From assembly GCA_943788295.1 (NCBI GenBank), contig CALSPS010000002.1:187352-251351 (forward strand): a DNA stretch of 64,000 nucleotides, given 5' to 3'. Shown piece by piece: positions 9,336-19,374 of the stretch. Position 1 is the first letter of the stretch; each line of letters starts with the position of its first letter. The notes beneath the pieces were generated by a model. It was not told the origin of the DNA. It saw only the letters and a list, made by a program, of their open reading frames with translations, and searched no databases. The translations under genes and the position numbers were made by a program. This stretch comes from Candidatus Poseidoniaceae archaeon (GTDB lineage: Archaea; Thermoplasmatota; Poseidoniia; Poseidoniales; Poseidoniaceae).

Positions 9336-9494
9336 GTAGCGAGGGCGTCGTCTAGAGGACATCAACCATTCGTTCGTACAGTCACCCCCGAGCCATCCCG
9401 AATGAAACATAAAATCTCCAATTATTCTTTTTGGGAATATTGGTTGTTGTGAATAAGCGTTCCATTCATATAGTTGCGGTTGAGGGGGGGTGGC

Positions 9495-10730
9495 ATGACA
9501 GGCGACCTGTTCTCTTCTGAATCCGTAACCCGGGGCCACCCTGACAAGCTTTGCGACACCGTATCGGATGCCATTGTAGACGCCTGTTTGGCCGTTGATC
9601 CAAACGCCCGTGTGGCGGTTGAAACCTGTGTCAAGGGGAAAGAAAACCTAGGACTCATTGTGCTTGCTGGTGAAGTTTCACTCAACGGTCCGGCACCAGA
9701 TTACGAAGCAGTTGCACGCACTGCGGCCGTCGAGGTGGGGTACAACTCCCATGAGATTGGAATGGATGCAAGATCCGCTGAGTGGACAGAAGTCCAAGTT
9801 CACATCACAACTCAATCTTCAAACATCGCACAGGGTGTCAACAAGGATGGATTATCACAAGGTGCCGGTGACCAAGGGCTCATGTTTGGGTATGCCTGCA
9901 CTGAAACCGAATCATTCGACGAATTGAAGGGTCGCTTTTTCCCACTTGCTGCTGCGCTGTCCCAACGGCTCACACGACGGCTGACTGCCGTTCGAGAACA
10001 AGGCATTCTTCCATGGGCAAGACCCGATGGTAAATCTCAGGTGACCGTGGAGTACGACGAACATGGTGCCGTGTCAAAGGTACACACCGTTGTCATTGCC
10101 ATCCAACACGACAAGGCTCTCAAGGAACAATTTGACGGTTCAGAGGAAGCAGAACTCGCTCATGTGCGCAGCGAAATCGAGAAACATGTTGTCCAGTATG
10201 CCATCCCCGAAAGTTTGCTTGAGGGCGGTTACAAATTAGTCGTCAACGGGACAGGCCGTTTCGCAGATCCAGGAGGCCCATACGCAGATGCTGGTTTGAC
10301 TGGTCGAAAAATCATCGTCGATACATACGGAGGCATGGGCCGCCATGGTGGTGGCGCATTCTCAGGAAAAGATCCATCCAAAGTCGATCGGTCCGCAGCC
10401 TACGCATCCCGTTGGGCAGCAAAACACGTCGTCGCTGCTGGTCTTGCAGACCGTTGTGAAATCCAGCTTGCATACGTGATTGGCGTGGCTGAACCAGTGA
10501 GCGTTCGTGTTGAAACCTTCGGTACTTCCAGCCTAAACGATCGACTTCTTTCTGATCGTGTCAAGAAGGTCTTCGATTTCAGACCGGGCGCCATTGCTCG
10601 AGATTTACAACTTCTACGGCCAATTTATTCCACCACCGCAGCAGGTGGGCATTTCGGAAGGATTCCAGGGGACGATGGAACGTTCCCTTGGGAAGTGATT
10701 GAAGAATCACGTATTTCGAAGTTGCAGTAA
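9495..10730 (+). CDS. metK: S-adenosylmethionine synthetase (bacterial/eukaryal MetK type)
   Basis: FSSESVTRGHPDKLCDTVSDAIVDACL is the MetK N-terminal GHPDK signature, with MetK glycine-rich loops downstream. Start at ATG 9495, preceded by GAGGGGGGG. An AT-rich divergent intergenic region (9336..9494) is shared with aspS. Confidence 0.85.
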   Translation: MTGDLFSSESVTRGHPDKLCDTVSDAIVDACLAVDPNARVAVETCVKGKENLGLIVLAGEVSLNGPAPDYEAVARTAAVEVGYNSHEIGMDARSAEWTEVQVHITTQSSNIAQGVNKDGLSQGAGDQGLMFGYACTETESFDELKGRFFPLAAALSQRLTRRLTAVREQGILPWARPDGKSQVTVEYDEHGAVSKVHTVVIAIQHDKALKEQFDGSEEAELAHVRSEIEKHVVQYAIPESLLEGGYKLVVNGTGRFADPGGPYADAGLTGRKIIVDTYGGMGRHGGGAFSGKDPSKVDRSAAYASRWAAKHVVAAGLADRCEIQLAYVIGVAEPVSVRVETFGTSSLNDRLLSDRVKKVFDFRPGAIARDLQLLRPIYSTTAAGGHFGRIPGDDGTFPWEVIEESRISKLQ

Positions 10731-10820: not shown

Positions 10821-13800
10821 ATGTCGTCTCGCTCCACTCGTGCTTTGGCCCTCGTCTCTGTTTTGCTTCTCGCAAGCCTCGCTCCGCTTGCGGTGCCGGC
10901 TGCTGCACACAGCGCAATTTTACTCTCCACAGACACCAGTCACGTGGTTCTTCAGCCCGGCGATGCAACCAACGTTACGCTCACAATCGAAAACAACGGC
11001 TCCTCCATCGAATCCTTCAACATCAGCGTGGATGACTCTGGACTTTCCAATGTGTGGACCGTAACTGCGGTTGATGCAACAGTGGACAATGTGTTCCCAA
11101 CTTGGACACGCAACACAACCATCGTTGTGCAATTGGCGACCGGGGCATTACCATCTGATGGTGGTTCATTCCTCATCGAGGTGACAGAACCAGATCAGAA
11201 CATTACTTCCTCGGTCGTCGTTTATGTCAACGTGCAACCTTCCTACAATCCTTTGTTGGATTTCAGTTCAAGCGGTCCTTTGTTGGAAATGGCGGCTGGT
11301 GCCTCAGGCAACGTCGCCGTTGACATCACCAATGGCGGTTCTGTAGCAGATACCCTTCTTTTGGATGTGGATTTCGAGCCAGACCTTGCCGCATGGTGGG
11401 CATCGAACGGCAACGCTACGGGTGGTAACGGGACCGGCAACGGGACTGGCAGCGGGAATGGAACCGGCAACGGGACTGGCAGCGGGAATGGAACCGGTAA
11501 CGGGACTGGCAGCGGGAATGGAACCGGTAACGGGACTGGCAGCGGGAATGGAACCGGTAACGGGACTGGCAGCGGGAACGGAACCGGCAATGGAACAGGT
11601 GGTGCCAACACAACCACCATCTCGAACGTCCTGATGTTCGGGAACAGTTACACCGCAAGCAGCAGCCTAAACGGTTTGCTCGAATCCATGGGCGTGCTCA
11701 ACGCCGATGCTATTTCGCCGGGTGGTAAGCGTTTAGATCAACACTGGAGCGATGTCAACACCTCTGCTCATGCCTCAAACACCACCTTGAGGGACCCAGC
11801 GATTGACTGGGACTACGTAGTGCTTCAAGATCAAAGTCAAGTCCCAGGATTCTATCGTACAACCTCCTCTTGGATTGCAAGTAAGGATGGCGCGGTTGCA
11901 TTAAGCCAAGCCGTCGATGATGAAGGCTCTGAGTCAATTTTGTTCATGACATGGGGCCGTCGAAATGGAGATGCGATGAATCCGACCCTCTACTCAAATT
12001 TCACGGTCATGCAGGACCGCTTAGAAGAGGGCTACATCGACTACAGGGACAACATGACTGCTGCGGGTTCAACAGTTTGGATTGCACCTGTCGGTCTTGC
12101 CTTCAAGCACATTCACGATAATGTGGTTGCGGGTGGCGTCAACGCAAGCGTCAGTGGAAATCTGTTTTACGACCTCTATTCTTCAGACGGAAGCCACCCT
12201 TCCCTTGCTGGAAGTTACCTTGCAGCGTGTGTGCTTTATGCCACAATGACTGGAACATCCCCAGTTGGCTCGAACGACACCGTCTCCCTCAACGCCAACA
12301 TAAAACTCCAACTTCAGCAAGCAGCTGCTGCGACCGTCTTCAACGAAACATCGCACCTCGACTATCCTTGGGAAAGTTCGAGCACAACTTCGACAACGAG
12401 TGCACGAGGTTTGGGCGGTGGCGTTCCAGCTGGATGGAATGTCCAATGGGTCGACGATCAACTGGACAACATGAGTGCAGGGGAAACCCGTCAAGTGACC
12501 TTGCAGATCAGCGTACCTGCGGATGTAACACCAGATTTCTACGGATTCAGGCTTTACGCAGCATCGACCCAGGGCAACGTCTCGAGTTCGACCATTGTTG
12601 TTGTTCACGTGGACGAACAACACAACCTAAGCATGGCGTTCCTCGACCAAGATGCAGACTTCATCCCTGGGTCAACCCAGAACACAAGCGTTGTAGTGAC
12701 CAACACCGGAAACGCTGAGGCTGATTTCGATTGGTCGATTGAATCCATATCAGGTCCTTGCGCATTCGCCCTTCCTGTCGCGTCTGCGCTCGCCGTTTCA
12801 CCAGATCAAGCGGTCAATGTTGCCGTTCAGGTCGATGTGCCTGCCTCTGCAACCATTGCCGATTCATGCACATTCAGCCTTTCCGGGTCAACACCTGATG
12901 GCAGTGCGATGATGGTTGCAGGAAGCGACACATTCACGATCGCTGTCGATGAACATGTCGAGTTCGAAGTTGTTGCTTTGGATTCGGTGGTTGAAGTGGA
13001 ACATGGTGCTGCATCCATGTACAATGTTCGTCTGTACAACAACGGAAGCGAAACCCGTTCGTTCAACCTAGAGGTTGTCGAGGTGACAGGCTTGGACACC
13101 GTTGTGACCTCCTCTCTTACGATTGATGTGGCCGCGGGTGAAACTGGTCTTTGGGCCATTGAAACTCAGGCAGATGAAGGCACAGTGGGCGACTTCATTC
13201 AATTCTTTGAGGTCATCCGTGGAGATCAAACTTCAACCACATCTGTGGAAATTGAAGTCTTGCCAACGGCACAAATCGAGTTGGCAGGGCCTCTGGATGG
13301 TCGAATTTTGATGCAGCCAGGTTCCACAAGCAGCACCGTCTTGACTGTGACCAATACTGGTACAGGAAACGTTTCTTTGGTGGCTTCTCTTTCCGGGCTA
13401 CCGGCTTCAGTCCAAGCGGAAATCAGCCACACATCGCTGTCGCTGACCGTTGGTGAAACCGCTCAAGTTCACCTCAATCTTTCTTTAGCGAACAATGCAG
13501 ATCCGGGGACGCATCCACTCACGATAGGCTTTGGTGGTTCAGGGGCCTCGGCAACAACAAGCATTGATTTGCAAATCCAAGACCGGTTTGCAGTGCTTGT
13601 TTCCACCACCTCGAGCGATATGGTCGCAGGCCCAGCCAACAATGCAAGTGCCACCTTTGATGTCACCAACCTCGGCACTTCCACGGACATTTACCAACTC
13701 AGCATCGTTGATGCCTCACAATCCGATTGGTTTTCATTCACGCTCTCCACGACCTCGGTCACGGTTGGAGCAGGAGAAACGGCAACCGTTGAATTGTCTG

Positions 13801-14951
13801 TTCGTGAAATTTCCACTGGTGCCACTTCCAACGGAATCACAGTGGCTCTTCTCGCAAGTTCTGGTACCGATGAAAATGCAGAGCATCACGTCAACTTGAC
13901 GGTACGTCCACAGATTGCTGGAGCGACCATTACCGTCATTGCTGATGATGATGAAGCCAAGCCTGGATCAAGCATTCGCGGCACAGTTGTGGTTCAGAAC
14001 AGCGGGACGGGCCAAGACCAACTTCTGCTGACCACCGTTGGTTTGGATTGTGGTGTGACGGCTCAATTCAACCTCGAAGCAGGTGCTTCGTCTTCCGCAA
14101 TTCCATGGTCGTGTGTCATTGAAGACACTGCACAATCTGGGCTTGGGGAATTGCTCTTCAGAGTCACCAGTTCGGCCCGCAGCGAGTATGTTGCAACCTA
14201 CACTGAAATTTACTCTGTTGAACCGTCATGGGATGCAAGTAATGTCCTTCAAGTCACAACCGATCTCGCCTCATACGCCGTACCCTATTCAGGCGGTACG
14301 ACTCTCGTTGTAACGGTTGAAAACCTCGCCAACACCCAAGTGTCGGGATCTTTGGATTTCGCTGGTGAAGGTTCAGCCATGCTCTTAGGGGAATGGTCAA
14401 GGTATGTTGACAATGCAAGCACATCGGCCTTTGTGCTCGCACCGTTTGCAAGCGTTGACTTTGAATTAACCCTTACTTCGAACGTTCAAAATGAAGAGGA
14501 TGCTGACTTATTCATCAAGGTCACTTACACCATCGATGCTACGACAACCACTTCTTCTGACCAATCTCCAAATTTTGCTGTGGAAGTTGCCGGTCCTGCC
14601 CAAGCACCACAAGGCGTAACCCTGCCGCTTGGATTCCAATTGGATCAGAATTCAACATTGAACGCATTGATCGGTGGTTGGGTCTTTTCCCTGCTTCTTC
14701 TTAGCGTGATGTACATCCAACGCTCACGTCGGGGCGAAGTGGAGGTTGAATCAGAGGACCAGGATGACGAAGTCGTTGAAGAAGCCTCGGAACCTGAACC
14801 AGCAACCTTAGGGTACAACGAGTGTCGAATGGAAGATGGCAAGGTCAGTTGCCCATCATGTGACGCTCGACTTGGTGTGCCTCGAAGCAGCGTGGCACCA
14901 TTCCGCTTTACATGTCCAAAGTGTCAAACTACGATCCGCGTGATTGAATGA
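10821..14951 (+). CDS. Giant secreted surface protein: signal peptide, NGT-sequon repeat linker, SGNH-hydrolase-like domain, long beta-rich repeat region, C-terminal TM helix and cytoplasmic acidic tail with zinc ribbon
   Basis: 1376 aa. The N-terminus MSSRSTRALALVSVLLLASLAPLAVPAAAHS is a signal peptide. (GNGTGNGTGS)n spans aa ~200-260. The VLMFGNSYT...DWDYVVLQDQSQ...ILFMTWGRRNG...DGSHPSLAGSYLAACVLYATMTG pattern matches an SGNH-like hydrolase family (recalled as DUF4886-type). It is Thr/Ser/Val-rich with many NxS/T sequons. The C-terminus has a TM helix (LIGGWVFSLLLLSVMYI), then an Asp/Glu-rich tail and CPSCDARLGVPRSSVAPFRFTCPKCQTTIRV. Confidence 0.7.
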   Translation: MSSRSTRALALVSVLLLASLAPLAVPAAAHSAILLSTDTSHVVLQPGDATNVTLTIENNGSSIESFNISVDDSGLSNVWTVTAVDATVDNVFPTWTRNTTIVVQLATGALPSDGGSFLIEVTEPDQNITSSVVVYVNVQPSYNPLLDFSSSGPLLEMAAGASGNVAVDITNGGSVADTLLLDVDFEPDLAAWWASNGNATGGNGTGNGTGSGNGTGNGTGSGNGTGNGTGSGNGTGNGTGSGNGTGNGTGSGNGTGNGTGGANTTTISNVLMFGNSYTASSSLNGLLESMGVLNADAISPGGKRLDQHWSDVNTSAHASNTTLRDPAIDWDYVVLQDQSQVPGFYRTTSSWIASKDGAVALSQAVDDEGSESILFMTWGRRNGDAMNPTLYSNFTVMQDRLEEGYIDYRDNMTAAGSTVWIAPVGLAFKHIHDNVVAGGVNASVSGNLFYDLYSSDGSHPSLAGSYLAACVLYATMTGTSPVGSNDTVSLNANIKLQLQQAAAATVFNETSHLDYPWESSSTTSTTSARGLGGGVPAGWNVQWVDDQLDNMSAGETRQVTLQISVPADVTPDFYGFRLYAASTQGNVSSSTIVVVHVDEQHNLSMAFLDQDADFIPGSTQNTSVVVTNTGNAEADFDWSIESISGPCAFALPVASALAVSPDQAVNVAVQVDVPASATIADSCTFSLSGSTPDGSAMMVAGSDTFTIAVDEHVEFEVVALDSVVEVEHGAASMYNVRLYNNGSETRSFNLEVVEVTGLDTVVTSSLTIDVAAGETGLWAIETQADEGTVGDFIQFFEVIRGDQTSTTSVEIEVLPTAQIELAGPLDGRILMQPGSTSSTVLTVTNTGTGNVSLVASLSGLPASVQAEISHTSLSLTVGETAQVHLNLSLANNADPGTHPLTIGFGGSGASATTSIDLQIQDRFAVLVSTTSSDMVAGPANNASATFDVTNLGTSTDIYQLSIVDASQSDWFSFTLSTTSVTVGAGETATVELSVREISTGATSNGITVALLASSGTDENAEHHVNLTVRPQIAGATITVIADDDEAKPGSSIRGTVVVQNSGTGQDQLLLTTVGLDCGVTAQFNLEAGASSSAIPWSCVIEDTAQSGLGELLFRVTSSARSEYVATYTEIYSVEPSWDASNVLQVTTDLASYAVPYSGGTTLVVTVENLANTQVSGSLDFAGEGSAMLLGEWSRYVDNASTSAFVLAPFASVDFELTLTSNVQNEEDADLFIKVTYTIDATTTTSSDQSPNFAVEVAGPAQAPQGVTLPLGFQLDQNSTLNALIGGWVFSLLLLSVMYIQRSRRGEVEVESEDQDDEVVEEASEPEPATLGYNECRMEDGKVSCPSCDARLGVPRSSVAPFRFTCPKCQTTIRVIE
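11425..11606 (+). repeat. Tandem 30-bp direct repeat (about 5.5 near-identical copies) inside the surface-protein gene, encoding GNGTGNGTGS units
   Basis: The unit gaaccggcaacgggactggcagcgggaatg recurs at 11461, 11491, 11521 and 11551 with only synonymous ggc/ggt and aat/aac changes. Partial copies flank it at 11431 and 11581. The repeat also creates spurious ORFs in other frames on both strands. Confidence 0.9.
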
Positions 14952-15794: not shown

Positions 15795-15936
15795 ATGTTC
15801 TTTTGTTTAGGTTCCAGCGAAAATTATACATTTGTGCTTATTATAATCACATTGTAGCCCAGTGCCCCGTTTGTAAATTTAGATGCGCAGTCGGGAAAGG
15901 GGTTGGTTAAAATACCAACTAGGATGTGAAGGAAAC
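15795..15936 (+). promoter_or_regulatory. AT-rich divergent promoter region with several TATA-like boxes upstream of surface protein 2 (and trmI on the other strand)
   Basis: aaaattataca (15821-31), ttataatc (15841-48) and ttgtaaatttag (15871-82) sit in a locally AT-rich stretch. A weak SD AAGGAAAC precedes the ATG at 15937. Confidence 0.25.
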
Positions 15937-18900
15937 ATGAAGATGCCCGCTCGCCTTCTTGCTCTAACCATCGTAACTCTGTTCGTAGGAAGTGTTCTTA
16001 CAGGATTTACTGCAGAAATGAACTCAGTTTCATCAGATTTGATTCTTGAAGAACCTGCTGCTGTGAACCAAGCAAGTTCCGCAACAAGCCCTGGACACGT
16101 CGTGTTCGGCCAATACATCTCATCTGACAATTGTGGGCACTGCTCGAAGACAGGTGGAGGTTCTGACGCTCATCACGCAGTCAAGCAACTTCACCCGGAT
16201 GAGTACGTGTACATCACCTACATGTCCGCATCCTATGGCGACACAGACACCGCACGTGCTGGAAACGTCGCCCCATACAACTGGGCTTGGTCCACCGGTG
16301 GAGCACCCGATGCCTATTTCGGTGACCGAACCGACAAAGGCCAAAGTGGTGCATCAGCCAATTATGACACCTACGACACCCTCTTCTCCTCCGGTGGAGG
16401 AATGGCTTCAACCGTCAACGATTACGGAATGTCTGCATCAATCTCCCAAAGCGGTGGAACCTATGATGTCGATATTTCTTACCGATACTCCGGATCTGCA
16501 TCGCCAGCAAGCAACATGAAATTGTATGCAGCCCTCGTTGACAAAGACTGCACAGGGTACACCTACAGTTCGGGTATTCCCCATGGCTACAACTGCTGGA
16601 TGGCTTGGCTCACTGCTGGTGACACCTACAAATCAAAGAACGCAGGTACAGGATCGTCTTTCATCAGCGTAACACCAACATCCACCTCCCAATCCGAGAC
16701 TTGGAGCAGTATTCCAACCTCAGTGGTCCCAGGTGGTATCAACAAGGCGGTCGTCATTGGTGTGCTCATGTCTGGCAATCAAGTGTCCCTTGGCGGCAGT
16801 TCTGCCCACGTATACCACGCTATTGATTCCACAATGGGTCCAAAGATGGACCTGACCCCAGGGCCACTCACCGCCACAAATCCAGAAGGCGGCTCAGCTT
16901 ATGTGATCGGTGACACACTCACACTCTCCTCGAGCATCAGCAATGTTGGCGACCTTGATTACACCGCAGGTGGTACAATTGAATTCTTCTACAAGAACGG
17001 CGTCAACGAAGTTACCATCGATACGGTCTCTCTCAACAACCTCGCAATGGGCGCATCTCAGCCTGCTTCGGTTTCCTTTGACACATCGGTCCTTCCAAGC
17101 AATGGTTGGAAAACAACCTTCGGTGTTCGATTGACCGGATTGGTCGATGAAACCCAAAGCGCAAACAACGTCGCTCAGACGGAACTTGACCATGACCGGC
17201 CCCCCTTGGCCATGAAGGCCCAGGTCGAAGGCTCGAATGTCATTGCACGAGGCACCCAATTCAACATCCTTGCAAAGGGTGATGCAGACGACAATGTTGA
17301 CACGATTGAAAGCATGTCGTTCAACATTGAAGTCTCACCGAGCAGCCAAAACCAATGGTCGAATGCCATCGTCTCTGGTGGTGAAATGATCTTGTATCCC
17401 GGCTCAGCAAGCGAAGGTCGGGAATACCTCCTCAGTCCATCAATGGACATGACCTCTGGCTGGTATGACATCCGCTCACAAACTGTTGATTCACGAAGCC
17501 AAACCAGCGCATGGAGTGTGACCGCAGATGCCTTTGAACTTGCAAATGGGATTCCATCCATTGTCGCTGAACCGATCCCTTCGGTTCTGTGCGACATCAC
17601 CAGTAAAGTCGATATGACCCCTCACGTTTCGGATCCTGAAACCCCTCTAGAGGACCTTGTCATTACCTCGGACAGCCCTGCGTTCATCGCATGGCATGCC
17701 GCATCTGCAGAACTCGAAGTCAACTTTGCATGGAGCGAAATCAATGGATGCCCTCTCGGACAACAAGGCATCGAAATCCGAGTCGATGATGGTGGAGATT
17801 ATTCTCAAACCGGTGAATTGCCGTATGGGACCCTCTTGTTTAACATCCTCGAGAACGGACAACCTCGCTGGGAAGGCCTTCCAACTCAAACCATCGATGA
17901 AGGTGGCAGCGGTCTTATTGATTTGCTTCCATTCCTTTCCGACACTGACGACACCGGCCAATCGGTGAATGCAAACACCCTCGCCGTGTCGATGGTGAGC
18001 AGCTCCAACCCAGATGTGATTGAGTTCACCCTTGACGGCTACGCACTCGGCTTCGAGACTTTGGATGACGATGTCAACGGCCAGTCGATTGTAACCCTTC
18101 GTGCGAGCGATGGTGAACAAATCTCAGAACAGACCATGATGGTTCAAATCAACCCTGAAAACGATGCACCTCGTGTCGATATGGAGGGACTTGAATCCAT
18201 CAAACTCAAGCGAAACGAAGAGATGGTTGTCGACTTAGTCTCTCGAATCACAGACATTGACGATCCTGCTTCTGAGGCCTTTGTCACGGTGACACCATCC
18301 GAAGCTGGGGCTGCCCGGTACAATTTGCTCACGGGTCTGCTTACGATTCAGTTCGAAAAAGTTGGTTTACAAACTGTTTCGATCGAAGTCATGGACAAGT
18401 ATGACACCAACACCTACACGATGAACATCGAAATCTACGATGCGCTTCCTCTTGAACTCGCACTGGTTGACGATGGAACCGGTCACATCTTTGCGGACAT
18501 GTCAAACGCTTACATCGGGCAAACTCCAATCATTACAATGACCCTGACCGACAACGCTCCCGTGTTTACCTACCTGTATGCGACCTGGAACGTCTGCAAC
18601 ACCCTAACTGGTACCTGTGATGGGTTGCTCAGTTTTGAGATGGATGTGACCCAATCCAACACAGGCTGGACCAATGAACTCGATATGCCGTCCTTGGTCT
18701 TCGAAGGGCAATCTGCCCGTGCAGATGGAGCACGAGACCGTGATTACTACGAAGTTGAATTGATGGGTACCGCTGACGATGGTGAGGATTACAAGACCCT
18801 TTCAAAGGTCAAGTGGGACATCACTGAGAACGCACCAACGCCAGAAGAGATGACGGATGATGCGCTATCGAATCACATCGTGAACCTCCTGGCCACAAAA

Positions 18901-19374
18901 GCATCTCTCGAAGGTGCAATTTCGGAATCAAACGGAGACACAACCGAACTCGAGGCAGACCTTGTTGAGGTCAAAGCAAATCTCGACCTTGCTTGTGATG
19001 ATCCACGGGCTCAATGCCCGACCGACGGTAACTCGGGTGCAGCCGTAGCTGAAACAGGGGAAATCCTCCCAATCGAAACCATTGCATTTGTCGTCATTGG
19101 CGTGGTCATTGCGGCCCTTCTCATCGGTCTCATGATGACTCGGGGTGGGCGCGAGCAGGAAGATGTTGCATGGAATGCAGGCACCGTACCCGCTAACGAT
19201 ATGGTCGCTAACTCGATGTACGGTGGAGCCCAGGAATTGTTCCAAGCACCAGCACCGATCGTGCCTCAAGCACCATCAGCAGGACCACCATTGCCAGCAA
19301 CAGGACTGCCTGTTGGATGGACAATGGAGCAATGGGTCTACTATGGACAGCAATACCTCGACGACCAACGTTGA
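15937..19374 (+). CDS. Giant secreted surface protein 2 (signal anchor, Ser/Thr/Asp-rich beta-repeat ectodomain, C-terminal TM helix and short cytoplasmic tail)
   Basis: Start at MKMPARLLALTIVTLFVGSVLTGF (ATG 15937); the track ORF begins 54 nt earlier. It is >1100 aa, low in Cys apart from a few pairs, and has many D/T/S-rich Ig-like or cadherin-like stretches. The C-terminal TM is IAFVVIGVVIAALLIGLMM, followed by a Pro/Ala-rich tail ending GWTMEQWVYYGQQYL. Confidence 0.65.
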   Translation: MKMPARLLALTIVTLFVGSVLTGFTAEMNSVSSDLILEEPAAVNQASSATSPGHVVFGQYISSDNCGHCSKTGGGSDAHHAVKQLHPDEYVYITYMSASYGDTDTARAGNVAPYNWAWSTGGAPDAYFGDRTDKGQSGASANYDTYDTLFSSGGGMASTVNDYGMSASISQSGGTYDVDISYRYSGSASPASNMKLYAALVDKDCTGYTYSSGIPHGYNCWMAWLTAGDTYKSKNAGTGSSFISVTPTSTSQSETWSSIPTSVVPGGINKAVVIGVLMSGNQVSLGGSSAHVYHAIDSTMGPKMDLTPGPLTATNPEGGSAYVIGDTLTLSSSISNVGDLDYTAGGTIEFFYKNGVNEVTIDTVSLNNLAMGASQPASVSFDTSVLPSNGWKTTFGVRLTGLVDETQSANNVAQTELDHDRPPLAMKAQVEGSNVIARGTQFNILAKGDADDNVDTIESMSFNIEVSPSSQNQWSNAIVSGGEMILYPGSASEGREYLLSPSMDMTSGWYDIRSQTVDSRSQTSAWSVTADAFELANGIPSIVAEPIPSVLCDITSKVDMTPHVSDPETPLEDLVITSDSPAFIAWHAASAELEVNFAWSEINGCPLGQQGIEIRVDDGGDYSQTGELPYGTLLFNILENGQPRWEGLPTQTIDEGGSGLIDLLPFLSDTDDTGQSVNANTLAVSMVSSSNPDVIEFTLDGYALGFETLDDDVNGQSIVTLRASDGEQISEQTMMVQINPENDAPRVDMEGLESIKLKRNEEMVVDLVSRITDIDDPASEAFVTVTPSEAGAARYNLLTGLLTIQFEKVGLQTVSIEVMDKYDTNTYTMNIEIYDALPLELALVDDGTGHIFADMSNAYIGQTPIITMTLTDNAPVFTYLYATWNVCNTLTGTCDGLLSFEMDVTQSNTGWTNELDMPSLVFEGQSARADGARDRDYYEVELMGTADDGEDYKTLSKVKWDITENAPTPEEMTDDALSNHIVNLLATKASLEGAISESNGDTTELEADLVEVKANLDLACDDPRAQCPTDGNSGAAVAETGEILPIETIAFVVIGVVIAALLIGLMMTRGGREQEDVAWNAGTVPANDMVANSMYGGAQELFQAPAPIVPQAPSAGPPLPATGLPVGWTMEQWVYYGQQYLDDQR

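Follow-up and report, generated by a model that had tools for sequence, protein, structure and literature searches.

The open reading frame at 10821..14951 (+) of the window (the whole 64,000-nt stretch of DNA that was analyzed) starts with ATG and encodes a type I membrane protein of 1376 aa, in which an SGNH-fold domain is inserted into the ectodomain and a predicted C4 zinc ribbon follows the single TM helix. We read this protein as probably a surface-tethered carbohydrate/lipid esterase or acyltransferase, the scaffold of which would be coupled to a putative intracellular partner. We found no literature on this protein family.

Architecture and topology

From the N to the C terminus, the protein is composed of the following features:

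10821..10907, + strand: Sec-type signal peptide, aa 1–29, with a basic n-region, a hydrophobic core (aa 9–27), and a cleavage-like site between AAA and HS
10908..11402, + strand: two N-terminal Ig-like/CARDB-like beta-sandwich domains, aa 30–194 (weak Pfam matches NPCBM_assoc, DUF7407, and GldM_3rd)
11403..11606, + strand: Gly/Asn/Thr/Ser glyco-linker, (GNGTGS)n, aa 195–262, with NGT sequons
11616..12368, + strand: DUF4886-type SGNH-fold domain, aa 266–516 (Pfam, AF2, Foldseek, and alignments)
Within this domain, + strand: block I, G274-N-S276 (Ser codon 11646..11648)
Within this domain, + strand: block II, G301-G302
Within this domain, + strand: block III position, Q336-D-Q338-S339, after beta-3
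Within this domain, + strand: block V, D456-G-S-H459 (Asp and His codons 12186..12188 and 12195..12197)
12369..12419, + strand: Ser/Thr-rich linker, aa 517–533, read straight from the sequence
12420..14615, + strand: stalk (~730 aa) of approximately seven Ig-like beta-sandwich domains, aa 534–1265 (Pfam FixG_C, NPCBM_assoc, Ig_VWA7, and HYDIN-Ig)
14664..14720, + strand: single C-terminal TM helix, aa 1282–1300, with an invariant G1286-W1287 and with R1301 and other basic residues after it
14721..14807, + strand: acidic, predicted cytoplasmic spacer, aa 1301–1329 (29% mean pairwise identity)
14808..14948, + strand: C-terminal C4 zinc ribbon, aa 1330–1376, with the predicted ligands C1344, C1347, C1365, and C1368

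Only two hydrophobic segments occur in the ORF, at aa 9–27 and aa 1282–1300. The first, in which hydrophobicity reaches its maximum of 2.28 at aa 9, belongs to the signal peptide, with which the N-termini of the homologs align. The second is preceded by no Lys/Arg in 15 aa and followed by three in 15 aa, with RSRR directly C-terminal of the helix. Furthermore, all 37 N-x-S/T sequons are found in the ectodomain, which has a pI of 4.05 compared with 8.4 for the ribbon, and the ribbon follows the sole predicted TM helix. Hydrophobicity, the positive-inside rule, and the distribution of sequons and Cys residues would thus place the ectodomain outside and the zinc ribbon inside the cell. This agrees with the sequence-only reading, which had proposed a cytoplasmic ribbon. 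The ORF, signal peptide, single C-terminal TM helix, acidic tail, and C-x2-C...C-x2-C ribbon that it described are all present, as are the motifs that it quoted (GNSYT, aa 274–278; DWDYVVLQDQSQ, aa 329–340; ILFMTWGRRNG, aa 373–383; and DGSHPSLAGSYLAACVLYATMTG, aa 456–478). On the other hand, that reading put the SGNH domain immediately behind signal peptide and linker, whereas ~165 aa forming the two Ig-like domains (aa 30–194) precede the linker.

The glyco-linker arises from tandem copies of a 30-bp unit (11433..11590; 5.3 copies, 97% matches). The N-terminal Ig-like pair shows a mean pairwise identity of 58% and is also present in orthologs that have no SGNH domain, and the stalk is homologous to these orthologs along its entire length. 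The stalk, in which two pairs of Cys residues are conserved (C647/C683 and C1077/C1098), scores 61 bits against NCBIfam choice_anch_T, under the cut-off of 70. The spacer, Asp/Glu-rich here, is Pro-rich or of a different length in distant orthologs.

Archaeal S-layer and surface glycoproteins can have a C-terminal TM anchor, as in the haloarchaeal cell-surface glycoprotein. The present protein resembles such glycoproteins in its signal peptide, acidic ectodomain, many N-glycosylation sequons, Ser/Thr-rich linker, beta-sandwich repeats, and C-terminal membrane anchor, and it may be an S-layer-like protein. However, whereas those glycoproteins have a few basic residues after the TM helix, this one has a 76-aa, predicted cytoplasmic tail with a conserved zinc ribbon at its end, and it also embeds an enzyme-type domain. 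Searches of Pfam and NCBIfam gave no sequence match to S-layer families, and no PGF-CTERM or archaeosortase-type signal was seen in the protein.

Distribution and modularity

More than 416 full-length homologs were found, and the quoted motifs are nearly invariant across 121 aligned sequences, which puts the architecture far beyond chance. The TM plus zinc-ribbon cassette is carried by 196 species-level genomes. The MAG titles of the 80 loci listed are almost entirely Poseidoniales, Poseidoniaceae, Poseidonia, or unclassified Euryarchaeota/Methanobacteriota/Thermoplasmatota; the loci include the MG-II chromosome CM001443.1 and one contig titled Verrucomicrobiales. Across Poseidoniales, orthologs of the gene occur in synteny, between MetK and GCD14. 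Relatives, including those without the SGNH domain, keep the order AspRS–MetK–gene–GCD14, and the stalk and tail of the syntenic relatives are 28–42% identical to the query. A second protein of ~1130–1180 aa is encoded next in three of the four loci examined. Synteny with housekeeping genes (AspRS, MetK, and GCD14) says nothing, however, about the function of the gene.

Is the SGNH domain what defines this protein? Some syntenic orthologs have no such domain and others carry another module, while the scaffold and the zinc ribbon persist. The SGNH domain is an optional insert and not the defining feature of the protein.

The SGNH-fold domain

The segment aa 266–516 is a genuine SGNH-fold domain. 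In isolation, it matched Pfam DUF4886 with 28.1 bits (cut-off 26.7), a family matched by 29/29 family members, and its AF2 model (pLDDT 92.5, pTM 0.91) has five strands alternating with helices. By sequence, it matched PDB 4s1p with E = 2.7e-10 (1.6e-18 with the family profile). The best Foldseek matches were 4i8i (DUF4886) and 4s1p (putative SGNH hydrolase), with E ~1e-11, followed by an acyltransferase, acetylesterases (rhamnogalacturonan and acetyl-xylan esterases among them), TesA, Ape1, and PatB.

DUF4886 (PF16227, SGNH hydrolase clan CL0264) includes 4i8i, which is BACUNI_01406 from Bacteroides uniformis, and 4s1p, which is Shel_16390 from Slackia heliotrinireducens. Both have the same fold as the query domain (target-length-normalized TM-score 0.70–0.85) and share with it GNS, GG, WD[YF]..Q..S, TW, and DG.HP. 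Known DUF4886 members are small bacterial proteins (~190–270 aa), whereas the query domain is an archaeal insert in a 1376-aa membrane-anchored surface protein. The SGNH-type alpha/beta fold, the block I Ser, the block II Gly, and the block V Asp-x-x-His are likewise common to rhamnogalacturonan acetylesterase (1deo), acetyl-xylan esterase (7ddy), TesA (4jgg), Ape1, and PatB, but the identity is only 10–16% and Foldseek E is 1e-5 to 1e-3. Block I is GNS instead of the GDS of characterized SGNH enzymes, and Q-D-Q-S replaces their block III Gly-x-Asn. The SGNH/GDSL-like assignment of the sequence-only reading holds for the fold, but its choice of ILFMTWGRRNG as block III does not: TWGRRNG is part of strand beta-4, with a variable Asn382 (N/S/D), and Q336-D-Q338-S339 holds the block III position.

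Could the domain edit the cell's own envelope by putting acyl groups, O-acetyl or others, onto N-glycans or surface polysaccharide or by taking them off? It would then resemble the extracytoplasmic SGNH domains of PatB (a peptidoglycan O-acetyltransferase) and Ape1 (an O-acetylesterase), and both PatB (8tlb) and Ape1 (8gld, 8gkd, and 4k3u) are among its structural neighbors. SGNH families include O-acetyltransferases, as reviewed in PMC9487903, and the protein is sequon-rich, as its surface neighbors presumably are. Nevertheless, we consider such editing unlikely, as the domain order would put the domain at the outer tip of a long stalk, which favors external contact; the many orthologs without the domain or with a different insert argue against an essential housekeeping role in building the envelope; and no AT3 or MBOAT acyl-donor partner was seen adjoining the gene.

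The zinc ribbon

A ribbon on such a protein had been called unusual; it is instead the hallmark that the whole family shares, and no other part is conserved as well. All four Cys residues (C1344-x2-C1347 ... C1365-x2-C1368) are present in 121/121 sequences, and the mean pairwise identity of the ribbon, the most conserved segment, is 78% compared with 45% for the stalk. The consensus, LGYNECR-x5-KVxCPxC-x3-LGVPRxS-x3-FRFxCPxC-x3-IRV, includes many invariant non-ligand residues (e.g., LGVPR.S, PF.F, and IRV). The AF2 model (pLDDT 89) has five strands, and its structural matches are generic zinc ribbons, including RNA polymerase subunits and TFS4, that are not significant (E ~1). Zinc-ribbon matches in Pfam and NCBIfam were sub-threshold, with no curated family threshold reached. 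Ribbons of the MJ0042, Zn_ribbon_4/5, and FGT1 types (PF13717, PF13719, PF23548, and TIGR02098) similarly have two CPxC knuckles 17 residues apart and short flanking beta-strands. However, the query scores below their cut-offs (19.4 vs 27, 15 vs 30.3, and 11.6 vs 20.9), has an invariant signature of its own (NE.R ... KV.CP.C...LGVPR.S...PF[RK]F.CP.C...IRV), and, unlike them, is C-terminal, behind a stop-transfer helix.

A search with the ribbon profile gave 103 matches. In those with a TM segment and a CxxC pair, the ribbon or ribbons come after the last or before the first TM segment, except in P0156, the one mixed case; either placement would be cytoplasmic, and relatives of the ribbon often adjoin TM segments on the predicted cytoplasmic side, as in the query. 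No other protein within the window carries the same cassette; other large membrane proteins have related ribbons on their predicted cytoplasmic side. In other surface proteins, long spacers are followed by tandem arrays of three to seven of these ribbons, and such arrays suggest avid binding of a target.

The ribbon might also be a mere folded plug in the cytoplasm, locking in the type I topology and keeping a single-helix anchor with a 1250-aa ectodomain from being pulled out. Its small, compact form behind the only TM helix fits a plug, as do the generic structural matches and the lack of a nameable partner. Yet a plug would need neither 78% identity while the stalks diverged to 45% nor the invariant non-ligand residues, and the avidity suggested by the tandem ribbons makes it quite unlikely.

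Conservation of the candidate active site

In the locus alignment (68 rows, namely the query, ORFs from species-representative genomes, and three metagenome loci), Ser276, Asp456, and His459 are kept in 66/66 complete domains, and they occur as SDH in 118/121 homologs. The putative triad is intact and essentially invariant, and a block II glycine is also present. In the P0116 lineage, which retains the domain, all three residues are swapped together (T/N/E), the pattern expected if Ser, Asp, and His work as a unit. The domain is also more conserved than the scaffold, with mean pairwise identities of 63% and 45% overall and identities of 66% and 24% in P0179. Among the catalytic Ser, Gly, Asn, and His that the earlier reading had anticipated, the Ser, the block II Gly, and the His within Asp-x-x-His are in place, but the canonical block III Gly-x-Asn is absent from both the alignment and the AF2 model; with Q-D-Q-S at this position, the oxyanion hole is atypical. 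A missing Ser or His, or a ribbon predicted outside the cell, would have refuted that reading; instead, both residues are retained and the ribbon is predicted inside.

The SGNH-fold domain of OSK binds RNA, and the present domain could be a non-catalytic pseudo-enzyme, that is, a binding or structural module. The missing Asn and the retention of the domain in P0116 despite the loss of Ser, Asp, and His point in this direction, as does a DUF4886 family without known or demonstrated activity (PMC9487903). Against this, the three residues are kept in nearly all homologs, the DUF4886 structures from bacteria have the same GNS, GG, and DG.HP motifs, and constraint is stronger on the domain than on the scaffold, so that we regard a pseudo-enzyme as very unlikely.

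Proposed function

Zinc ribbons commonly bind nucleic acids or transcription machinery. A nucleic-acid-binding or regulatory ribbon would make the protein a membrane-tethered sensor: once the ectodomain had bound its substrate, the tail would be switched or released, in the latter case perhaps through a membrane protease (e.g., LonB, which is encoded nearby). This reading would suit the basic pI of the ribbon, its RNA polymerase and TFS4 matches, the presence of LonB downstream in all loci of sufficient length, and a candidate receiver-like stretch, read by eye, in the tandem-ribbon relative P0169, but it is highly improbable, as those matches are not significant, LonB belongs to the housekeeping block (AspRS, MetK, and GCD14) with other genes in between, and neither a cleavage motif nor a helix-turn-helix was recognized.

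Our preferred reading, a surface-tethered esterase or acyltransferase, would make this protein the form found in Poseidoniales (Marine Group II, uncultured marine archaea) of a type I surface protein that occurs throughout the lineage at a conserved genomic position and can be heavily N-glycosylated. The cleaved signal peptide would send ~1250 aa outside the cell, where the stalk of approximately seven Ig-like domains would rise from the single C-terminal TM helix and present the DUF4886-type SGNH domain at its distal end, between the stalk and the N-terminal Ig-like pair. Judging from the sequence and the model, this domain is probably a functional serine esterase or acyl-transferase that most likely targets either O-acyl (acetyl) groups on carbohydrates or lipid-like esters; particles and dissolved polymers touched by the cell could supply the substrates, as could its own glycan coat. 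Inside the cell, the variable acidic spacer would tether the small, basic C4 zinc ribbon, which may bind a conserved intracellular partner or the inner face of the membrane and would thereby link the surface protein with the cell interior.

Architecture and Topology of the Surface Protein

The ORF at 10821..14951 (+), which begins at the first ATG past an upstream stop, encodes a protein of 1376 aa with the following layout.

Layout of the 1376-aa protein
aa 1-29, + strand: signal peptide, with a hydrophobic segment at aa 9-27 (19-residue Kyte-Doolittle scan)
aa 30-194, + strand: two Ig-like domains
aa 195-262, + strand: Gly/Asn/Thr/Ser linker, encoded by a 30-bp tandem repeat (window 11433..11590)
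aa 266-516, + strand: SGNH-like domain
between the SGNH-like domain and the stalk, + strand: Ser/Thr linker
aa 534-1265, + strand: Ig-like stalk (Pfam FixG_C, NPCBM_assoc, Ig_VWA7, HYDIN-Ig)
aa 1282-1300, + strand: TM helix, the second of two hydrophobic segments
aa 1301-1329, + strand: acidic spacer
aa 1330-1376, + strand: zinc ribbon (C1344-x2-C1347, C1365-x2-C1368)

The four motif strings singled out in a sequence-only reading of this DNA were all found in the protein, and the layout proposed there was accurate except that the N-terminal Ig-like pair (aa 30-194) had been overlooked. The repeat underlying the first linker consists of 5.3 copies with 97% matches and encodes (GNGTGS)n; the long ORFs that run over it in other frames or on the opposite strand, e.g., 11243..11620 (-) and 11365..11634 (+), are most simply explained by the repeat itself. 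Several database homologs, of about 1100 aa and with 80% coverage, start just past this linker; assemblies or gene calls thus seem to break at the repeat. An assembly chimera or a mis-called ORF was ruled out, since dozens of independent species-level genomes have the full architecture.

On which side of the membrane does the zinc ribbon lie? Only two hydrophobic segments, aa 9-27 and aa 1282-1300, were detected in the 1376-aa protein, and the ribbon is C-terminal to the only TM helix. The 15 residues N-terminal of this helix contain no Lys or Arg, RSRR lies directly C-terminal of it, and all of the N-x-S/T sequons (37/37) are on its N-terminal side, in the ectodomain. The pI is 4.05 for the ectodomain versus 8.4 for the last 47 residues. 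Because the protein combines a cleaved N-terminal signal peptide and one stop-transfer helix with charges that follow the positive-inside rule and a C-terminal part free of sequons, the protein is predicted to be of type I, with the ribbon in the cytoplasm, where the sequence-only reading had also placed it.

With its signal peptide, 37 sequons and C-terminal TM helix, the protein resembles the archaeal S-layer glycoproteins, which are likewise secreted and membrane-anchored with a glycosylatable ectodomain. However, no described S-layer family matched it in Pfam or NCBIfam. At the C-terminus, a tail of 76 aa with a zinc ribbon takes the place of a short basic one, and no PGF-CTERM/archaeosortase signal, twin-arginine signal or lipobox was seen on reading the protein sequence. 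The protein is a new version of the archaeal TM-anchored surface glycoprotein theme, marked by an embedded enzyme slot and a conserved, predicted cytoplasmic ribbon.

Distribution and Synteny

More than 416 homologs, many of them aligned over the full length of the query, come from Poseidoniaceae or Poseidonia MAGs; their names say at most 'hypothetical', 'uncharacterized membrane protein' or 'DUF4886 domain-containing protein'. In a scan of one genome per GTDB species, the ribbon cassette was present in 196 genomes. Among the 80 loci listed, nearly all are from MAGs titled Poseidoniales, Poseidoniaceae, Poseidonia, or unclassified Euryarchaeota/Methanobacteriota/Thermoplasmatota, and CM001443.1 ('MG-II chromosome') is one of the 80. 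At the DNA level, the window is 93% identical to one Poseidoniaceae MAG contig.

In relatives with 28-42% identity to the query in the stalk and tail, the genes still come in the order AspRS - MetK - gene - GCD14-like methyltransferase. MetK (9474..10730 (+)), in which the three S-AdoMet_synt N, M and C domains were matched, has the same position in all of the relatives examined, and we take it to be of the bacterial/eukaryotic rather than the archaeal type. Of the four loci examined, three have a second large surface protein (~1130-1180 aa) next; wherever a locus extends far enough, LonB and an MFS transporter lie further along. Since both the gene order and the distribution over the Poseidoniales are conserved, the gene is vertically inherited, with orthologs in a conserved position across the order. 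The housekeeping neighbours give no functional clue.

A few loci stand apart. A contig deposited as 'Verrucomicrobiales bacterium ARS100' (NZEQ01000011.1, locus L063) carries a full SGNH + ribbon ORF of 1357 aa and is probably mis-binned. Two MAGs have two cassette contigs each, UBA433 (L004 and L020) and FRAM18_bin100 (L025 and L026, whose ORFs are identical in length and score); either strain duplicates within the bins or true paralogs may account for this.

We found no description of this protein family or of the Poseidoniales cell envelope in the literature, and the available portions of PMC5898192, PMC6461757 and PMC11188069 do not describe the family.

Fold and Family of the SGNH Domain

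A PDB sequence search with the query retrieved 4s1p (E = 2.7e-10), which a profile of 29 family members matched at E = 1.6e-18, together with 4i8i. The Pfam family DUF4886 (PF16227; gathering threshold 26.7) scored 28.1 bits against the isolated domain and 22.2 bits against the whole protein; by score, the query sequence alone would be a borderline member. All 29 of the aligned family members matched DUF4886, with a best E-value of 4.2e-13. The AlphaFold2 (AF2) model of aa 262-516 (pLDDT 92.5, pTM 0.91) has five strands alternating with helices and, together with Foldseek, shows the three-layer alpha/beta/alpha fold with a five-stranded parallel sheet of the SGNH superfamily. The top Foldseek matches in the PDB were 4i8i (DUF4886; E = 6.9e-12) and 4s1p ('putative SGNH hydrolase'; E = 9.9e-12), which are ahead of the next class by about six orders of magnitude. 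The natural proteins among the 36 PDB matches with E <= 1e-3 are SGNH/GDSL-type enzymes, the others being several designed scaffolds. The next neighbours, at E = 1e-5 to 1e-3, include a perhydrolytic acyltransferase, rhamnogalacturonan and acetyl-xylan esterases, TesA, and the peptidoglycan O-acetylesterase Ape1 and O-acetyltransferase PatB.

On account of the PDB sequence matches, the Pfam score, the AF2 model and the Foldseek ranking, the domain belongs to the SGNH clan (Pfam clan CL0264) and, within it, to DUF4886; the SGNH-like segment had already been recognized from the sequence alone. It is a new archaeal, surface-displayed member of a known family, for which a 2022 review (PMC9487903) records structure but no known activity.

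Catalytic Residues

Does the domain have the residues of a working hydrolase? In the family alignment of 121 sequences, the block I nucleophile lies directly after beta-1 in G274-N275-S276 (120, 120 and 119 of 121, respectively), the GNS variant of the GDS-type motif that is common to 4s1p and 4i8i. The block II Gly is represented by G301 (117/121) and G302 (112/121) in the loop after model strand 2, and the block V Asp-x-x-His by D456 (119/121) and H459 (120/121). In a 68-row alignment of the query, the ORFs of species-representative genomes and three metagenome loci, D456 and H459 are kept in 68/68 rows, and Ser, Asp and His are all kept in the 66 complete domains (66/66).

On the other hand, the Gly-x-Asn of block III is absent. 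The loop after strand 3 (aa 332-335) reads Q336-D337-Q338-S339, with no Asn, and is essentially invariant in both alignments; bacterial DUF4886 structures have these residues as W-D-[YF]-x-x-x-Q-x-x-S. The sequence-only reading had assigned block III to TWGRRNG, but this string comes after model strand 4, and its N382 is variable (N in 43, S in 42 and D in 33 of the 121 sequences). Of the catalytic residues that it had named for checking, the Ser, Gly and His are therefore kept in nearly all of the 121 aligned sequences, whereas the block III Asn is not there. Because this classical Asn is absent, the oxyanion hole would have to be built differently from the classical one, perhaps with Gln338 or Ser339 as the substitute.

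The mean pairwise identity is 63% for the SGNH domain versus 45% for the scaffold, and the distant relative P0179 is 66% identical to the query in the SGNH domain versus 24% in the stalk. The homolog P0116 ('Candidatus Poseidoniaceae archaeon' HA359_02470) has the whole SGNH domain with Ser->Thr, Asp->Asn and His->Glu changes at the triad and further changes nearby (GNTLIS, SNGREPS), and looks like a natural catalytically dead variant. Such a joint change is what one would expect of a working triad that is given up as a whole. Together with the higher conservation relative to the scaffold and the contrast within P0179, it argues for a functional SGNH domain.

The SGNH Domain as a Swappable Insert

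When the ribbon profile was searched against 1.84 billion representative proteins, 103 matches were obtained. Several of the full-length matches agree with the query in the N-terminal Ig pair, the linker, the stalk, the TM helix and the ribbon, and have either no SGNH domain (P0128, P0131, P0146 and P0181; 1053-1100 aa) or a different insert instead of it (P0162, P0171, P0186 and P0213); P0131 and P0213 occupy the same MetK - gene - GCD14 locus. Furthermore, ORFs of two Poseidoniaceae-labelled genomes (L047 135..3815 and L049 3566..7144) have a different beta-rich insert of ~110 aa (ETLMFTQP.NGTSYDL...) at the SGNH position, and MetK directly precedes the L049 ORF. The insert is modular, and the conserved entity is the scaffold plus the ribbon, with the SGNH domain as a cargo module between the N-terminal pair and the stalk. 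Since the conservation in P0179 is incongruent (66% versus 24%), exchange of the SGNH module between lineages is hinted at.

The C-Terminal Zinc Ribbon

The last 47 residues are the best-conserved part of the protein, with a mean pairwise identity of 78%, compared with 29% for the preceding spacer. C1344, C1347, C1365 and C1368 are present in 121/121 sequences, and the residues L1330, N1333, E1334, K1341, L1351-G-V-P-R1355, S1357, P1360-F, F1363, P1366 and I1372-R-V, which are not ligands, are invariant or nearly so. C1335 is ruled out as a ligand, its position being occupied by V, A or I in distant orthologs. The AF2 model (pLDDT 89) is all-beta with five short strands and, with the alignment, shows the two CxxC knuckles, each on a beta-hairpin, and the four putative Cys ligands of a zinc ribbon, which bears out the C-x2-C...C-x2-C assignment made by eye.

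Foldseek with this model returned only generic zinc ribbons, none significant (E about 1 or worse) and without a functional lead: LysW (best, E = 0.98), RNA polymerase subunits, TFS4 and the Sir2 ribbon. The curated ribbon families all scored below their thresholds (Zn_ribbon_FGT1_2, 19.4 versus 27; Zn_ribbon_4, 15 versus 30.3; TIGR02098, 11.6 versus 20.9). The C-terminal domain is consequently a zinc ribbon by pattern and predicted fold that falls outside every curated subfamily in Pfam and NCBIfam.

Is the ribbon confined to this scaffold? In the window, no second cassette of the kind that the sequence-only reading had suggested looking for was found in the six-frame ORFs of >=40 aa, either with the family HMM or with a CxxC...CxxC regex. 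Seven weaker matches of the ribbon profile (P0151, P0153, P0154, P0155, P0159, P0173 and P0201) carry three to seven tandem ribbons past the last TM segment. These are proteins of 600-2600 aa with a signal/anchor segment, a large PKD- or CARDB-like ectodomain and a long acidic or coiled spacer; the ribbons are of the type CP.C-x3-[LI]x[VI]-x4,5-[RK]P[FLY]x[FI]xCP.C and are often preceded by long acidic repeats, e.g., GVEIEGVE... (the full-length form of P0153 is P0289). A Pfam scan of multi-ribbon relatives gave only mixed sub-threshold generic ribbon families. No informative names were found among them or the distant orthologs, the names given being 'hypothetical' or 'uncharacterized membrane protein'. 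P0169 (925 aa), which lacks a TM segment, likewise combines the acidic repeat spacer with tandem ribbons of this type, four in number, and its central stretch is receiver-domain-like on reading by eye.

Another set of matches has two or three ribbons N-terminal of the first TM segment. With one mixed exception (P0156), every match that has both a TM segment and a CxxC pair carries its ribbon(s) either past the last TM segment or ahead of the first, positions that would both be cytoplasmic. This placement speaks for a role of such ribbons in the cytoplasm close to the membrane, and the tandem arrays suggest a repetitive or polymeric target.

The adjacent surface protein (15883..19374 (+), 1163 aa) has one weak CARDB match, a C-terminal TM helix and a cytoplasmic tail of ~80 aa. 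Homology to the protein under study was ruled out (BLASTP E = 0.035). Its tail contains the motifs ANSMYGG.Q..FQ and, at the extreme C-terminus, PP.P..GLP.GW[ST]M[ED]QW.YYG.QY, both kept in the syntenic homologs at L001, L002 and L084; the two adjacent surface proteins therefore both have conserved cytoplasmic tail modules.

Discussion

The anatomy of the protein is solid, and the group that carries it is ecologically dominant and uncultured; its function is something that we infer entirely. A stalk of roughly seven Ig-like domains would display the SGNH domain away from the membrane, where this distal domain, probably an active serine esterase or acyl-transferase, may come into contact with the glycans of its own cell or, on particles, with acylated polysaccharides or lipids. 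At the other end, the ribbon would bind zinc and attach the protein to the inner leaflet or to a conserved partner inside the cell. In PMC6461757, Marine Group II (MGII) is inferred to break down high-molecular-weight organic matter as well as proteins and lipids, and perhaps to associate with particles, with which an esterase fits.

It is also plausible that the SGNH domain edits the cell's own glycans as an acyl-transferase or esterase, a role inseparable here from the reading above; that it is a pseudo-enzyme is unlikely, given the conservation. As for the ribbon, nothing specific supports a regulatory or nucleic-acid-binding tail of a sensor. A mere topological plug is disfavoured both by the sequence conservation of the ribbon and by the tandem ribbon arrays on other proteins.

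Could the ribbon have a wider meaning than docking of this one protein? We consider it rather unlikely that it defines an unrecognised class of archaeal envelope-to-cytoplasm connectors (signature NE.R...CP.C...L.VP.....PF[RK]F.CP.C...[IV]RV) that dock surface proteins, with the scaffold as a platform for swapped modules. The Poseidoniales scaffold would have a single connector of this kind, and other giant surface proteins, which look unrelated to it, a tandem array of three to seven; the docking target might be the inner leaflet, a filament of the cytoskeleton, or the machinery for division or vesicles, and the cargo an SGNH esterase, another beta-rich insert, or none.

PMC6461757 describes the Poseidoniales (Marine Group II), of which no representative has been cultured, as more abundant in the surface ocean than any other planktonic archaea. 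A surface protein that is positionally conserved across the order is a concrete candidate for a major component of their envelope. Its SGNH insert would give DUF4886 a clear physiological setting, as an enzyme on the surface of a heterotroph that presumably lives on particles and polymers, and the slot with its exchangeable inserts points to a natural display scaffold. Because the ribbon is so extremely conserved, it offers a testable handle, through pull-downs or co-folding screens, on how an archaeal surface protein is connected to the cell interior.
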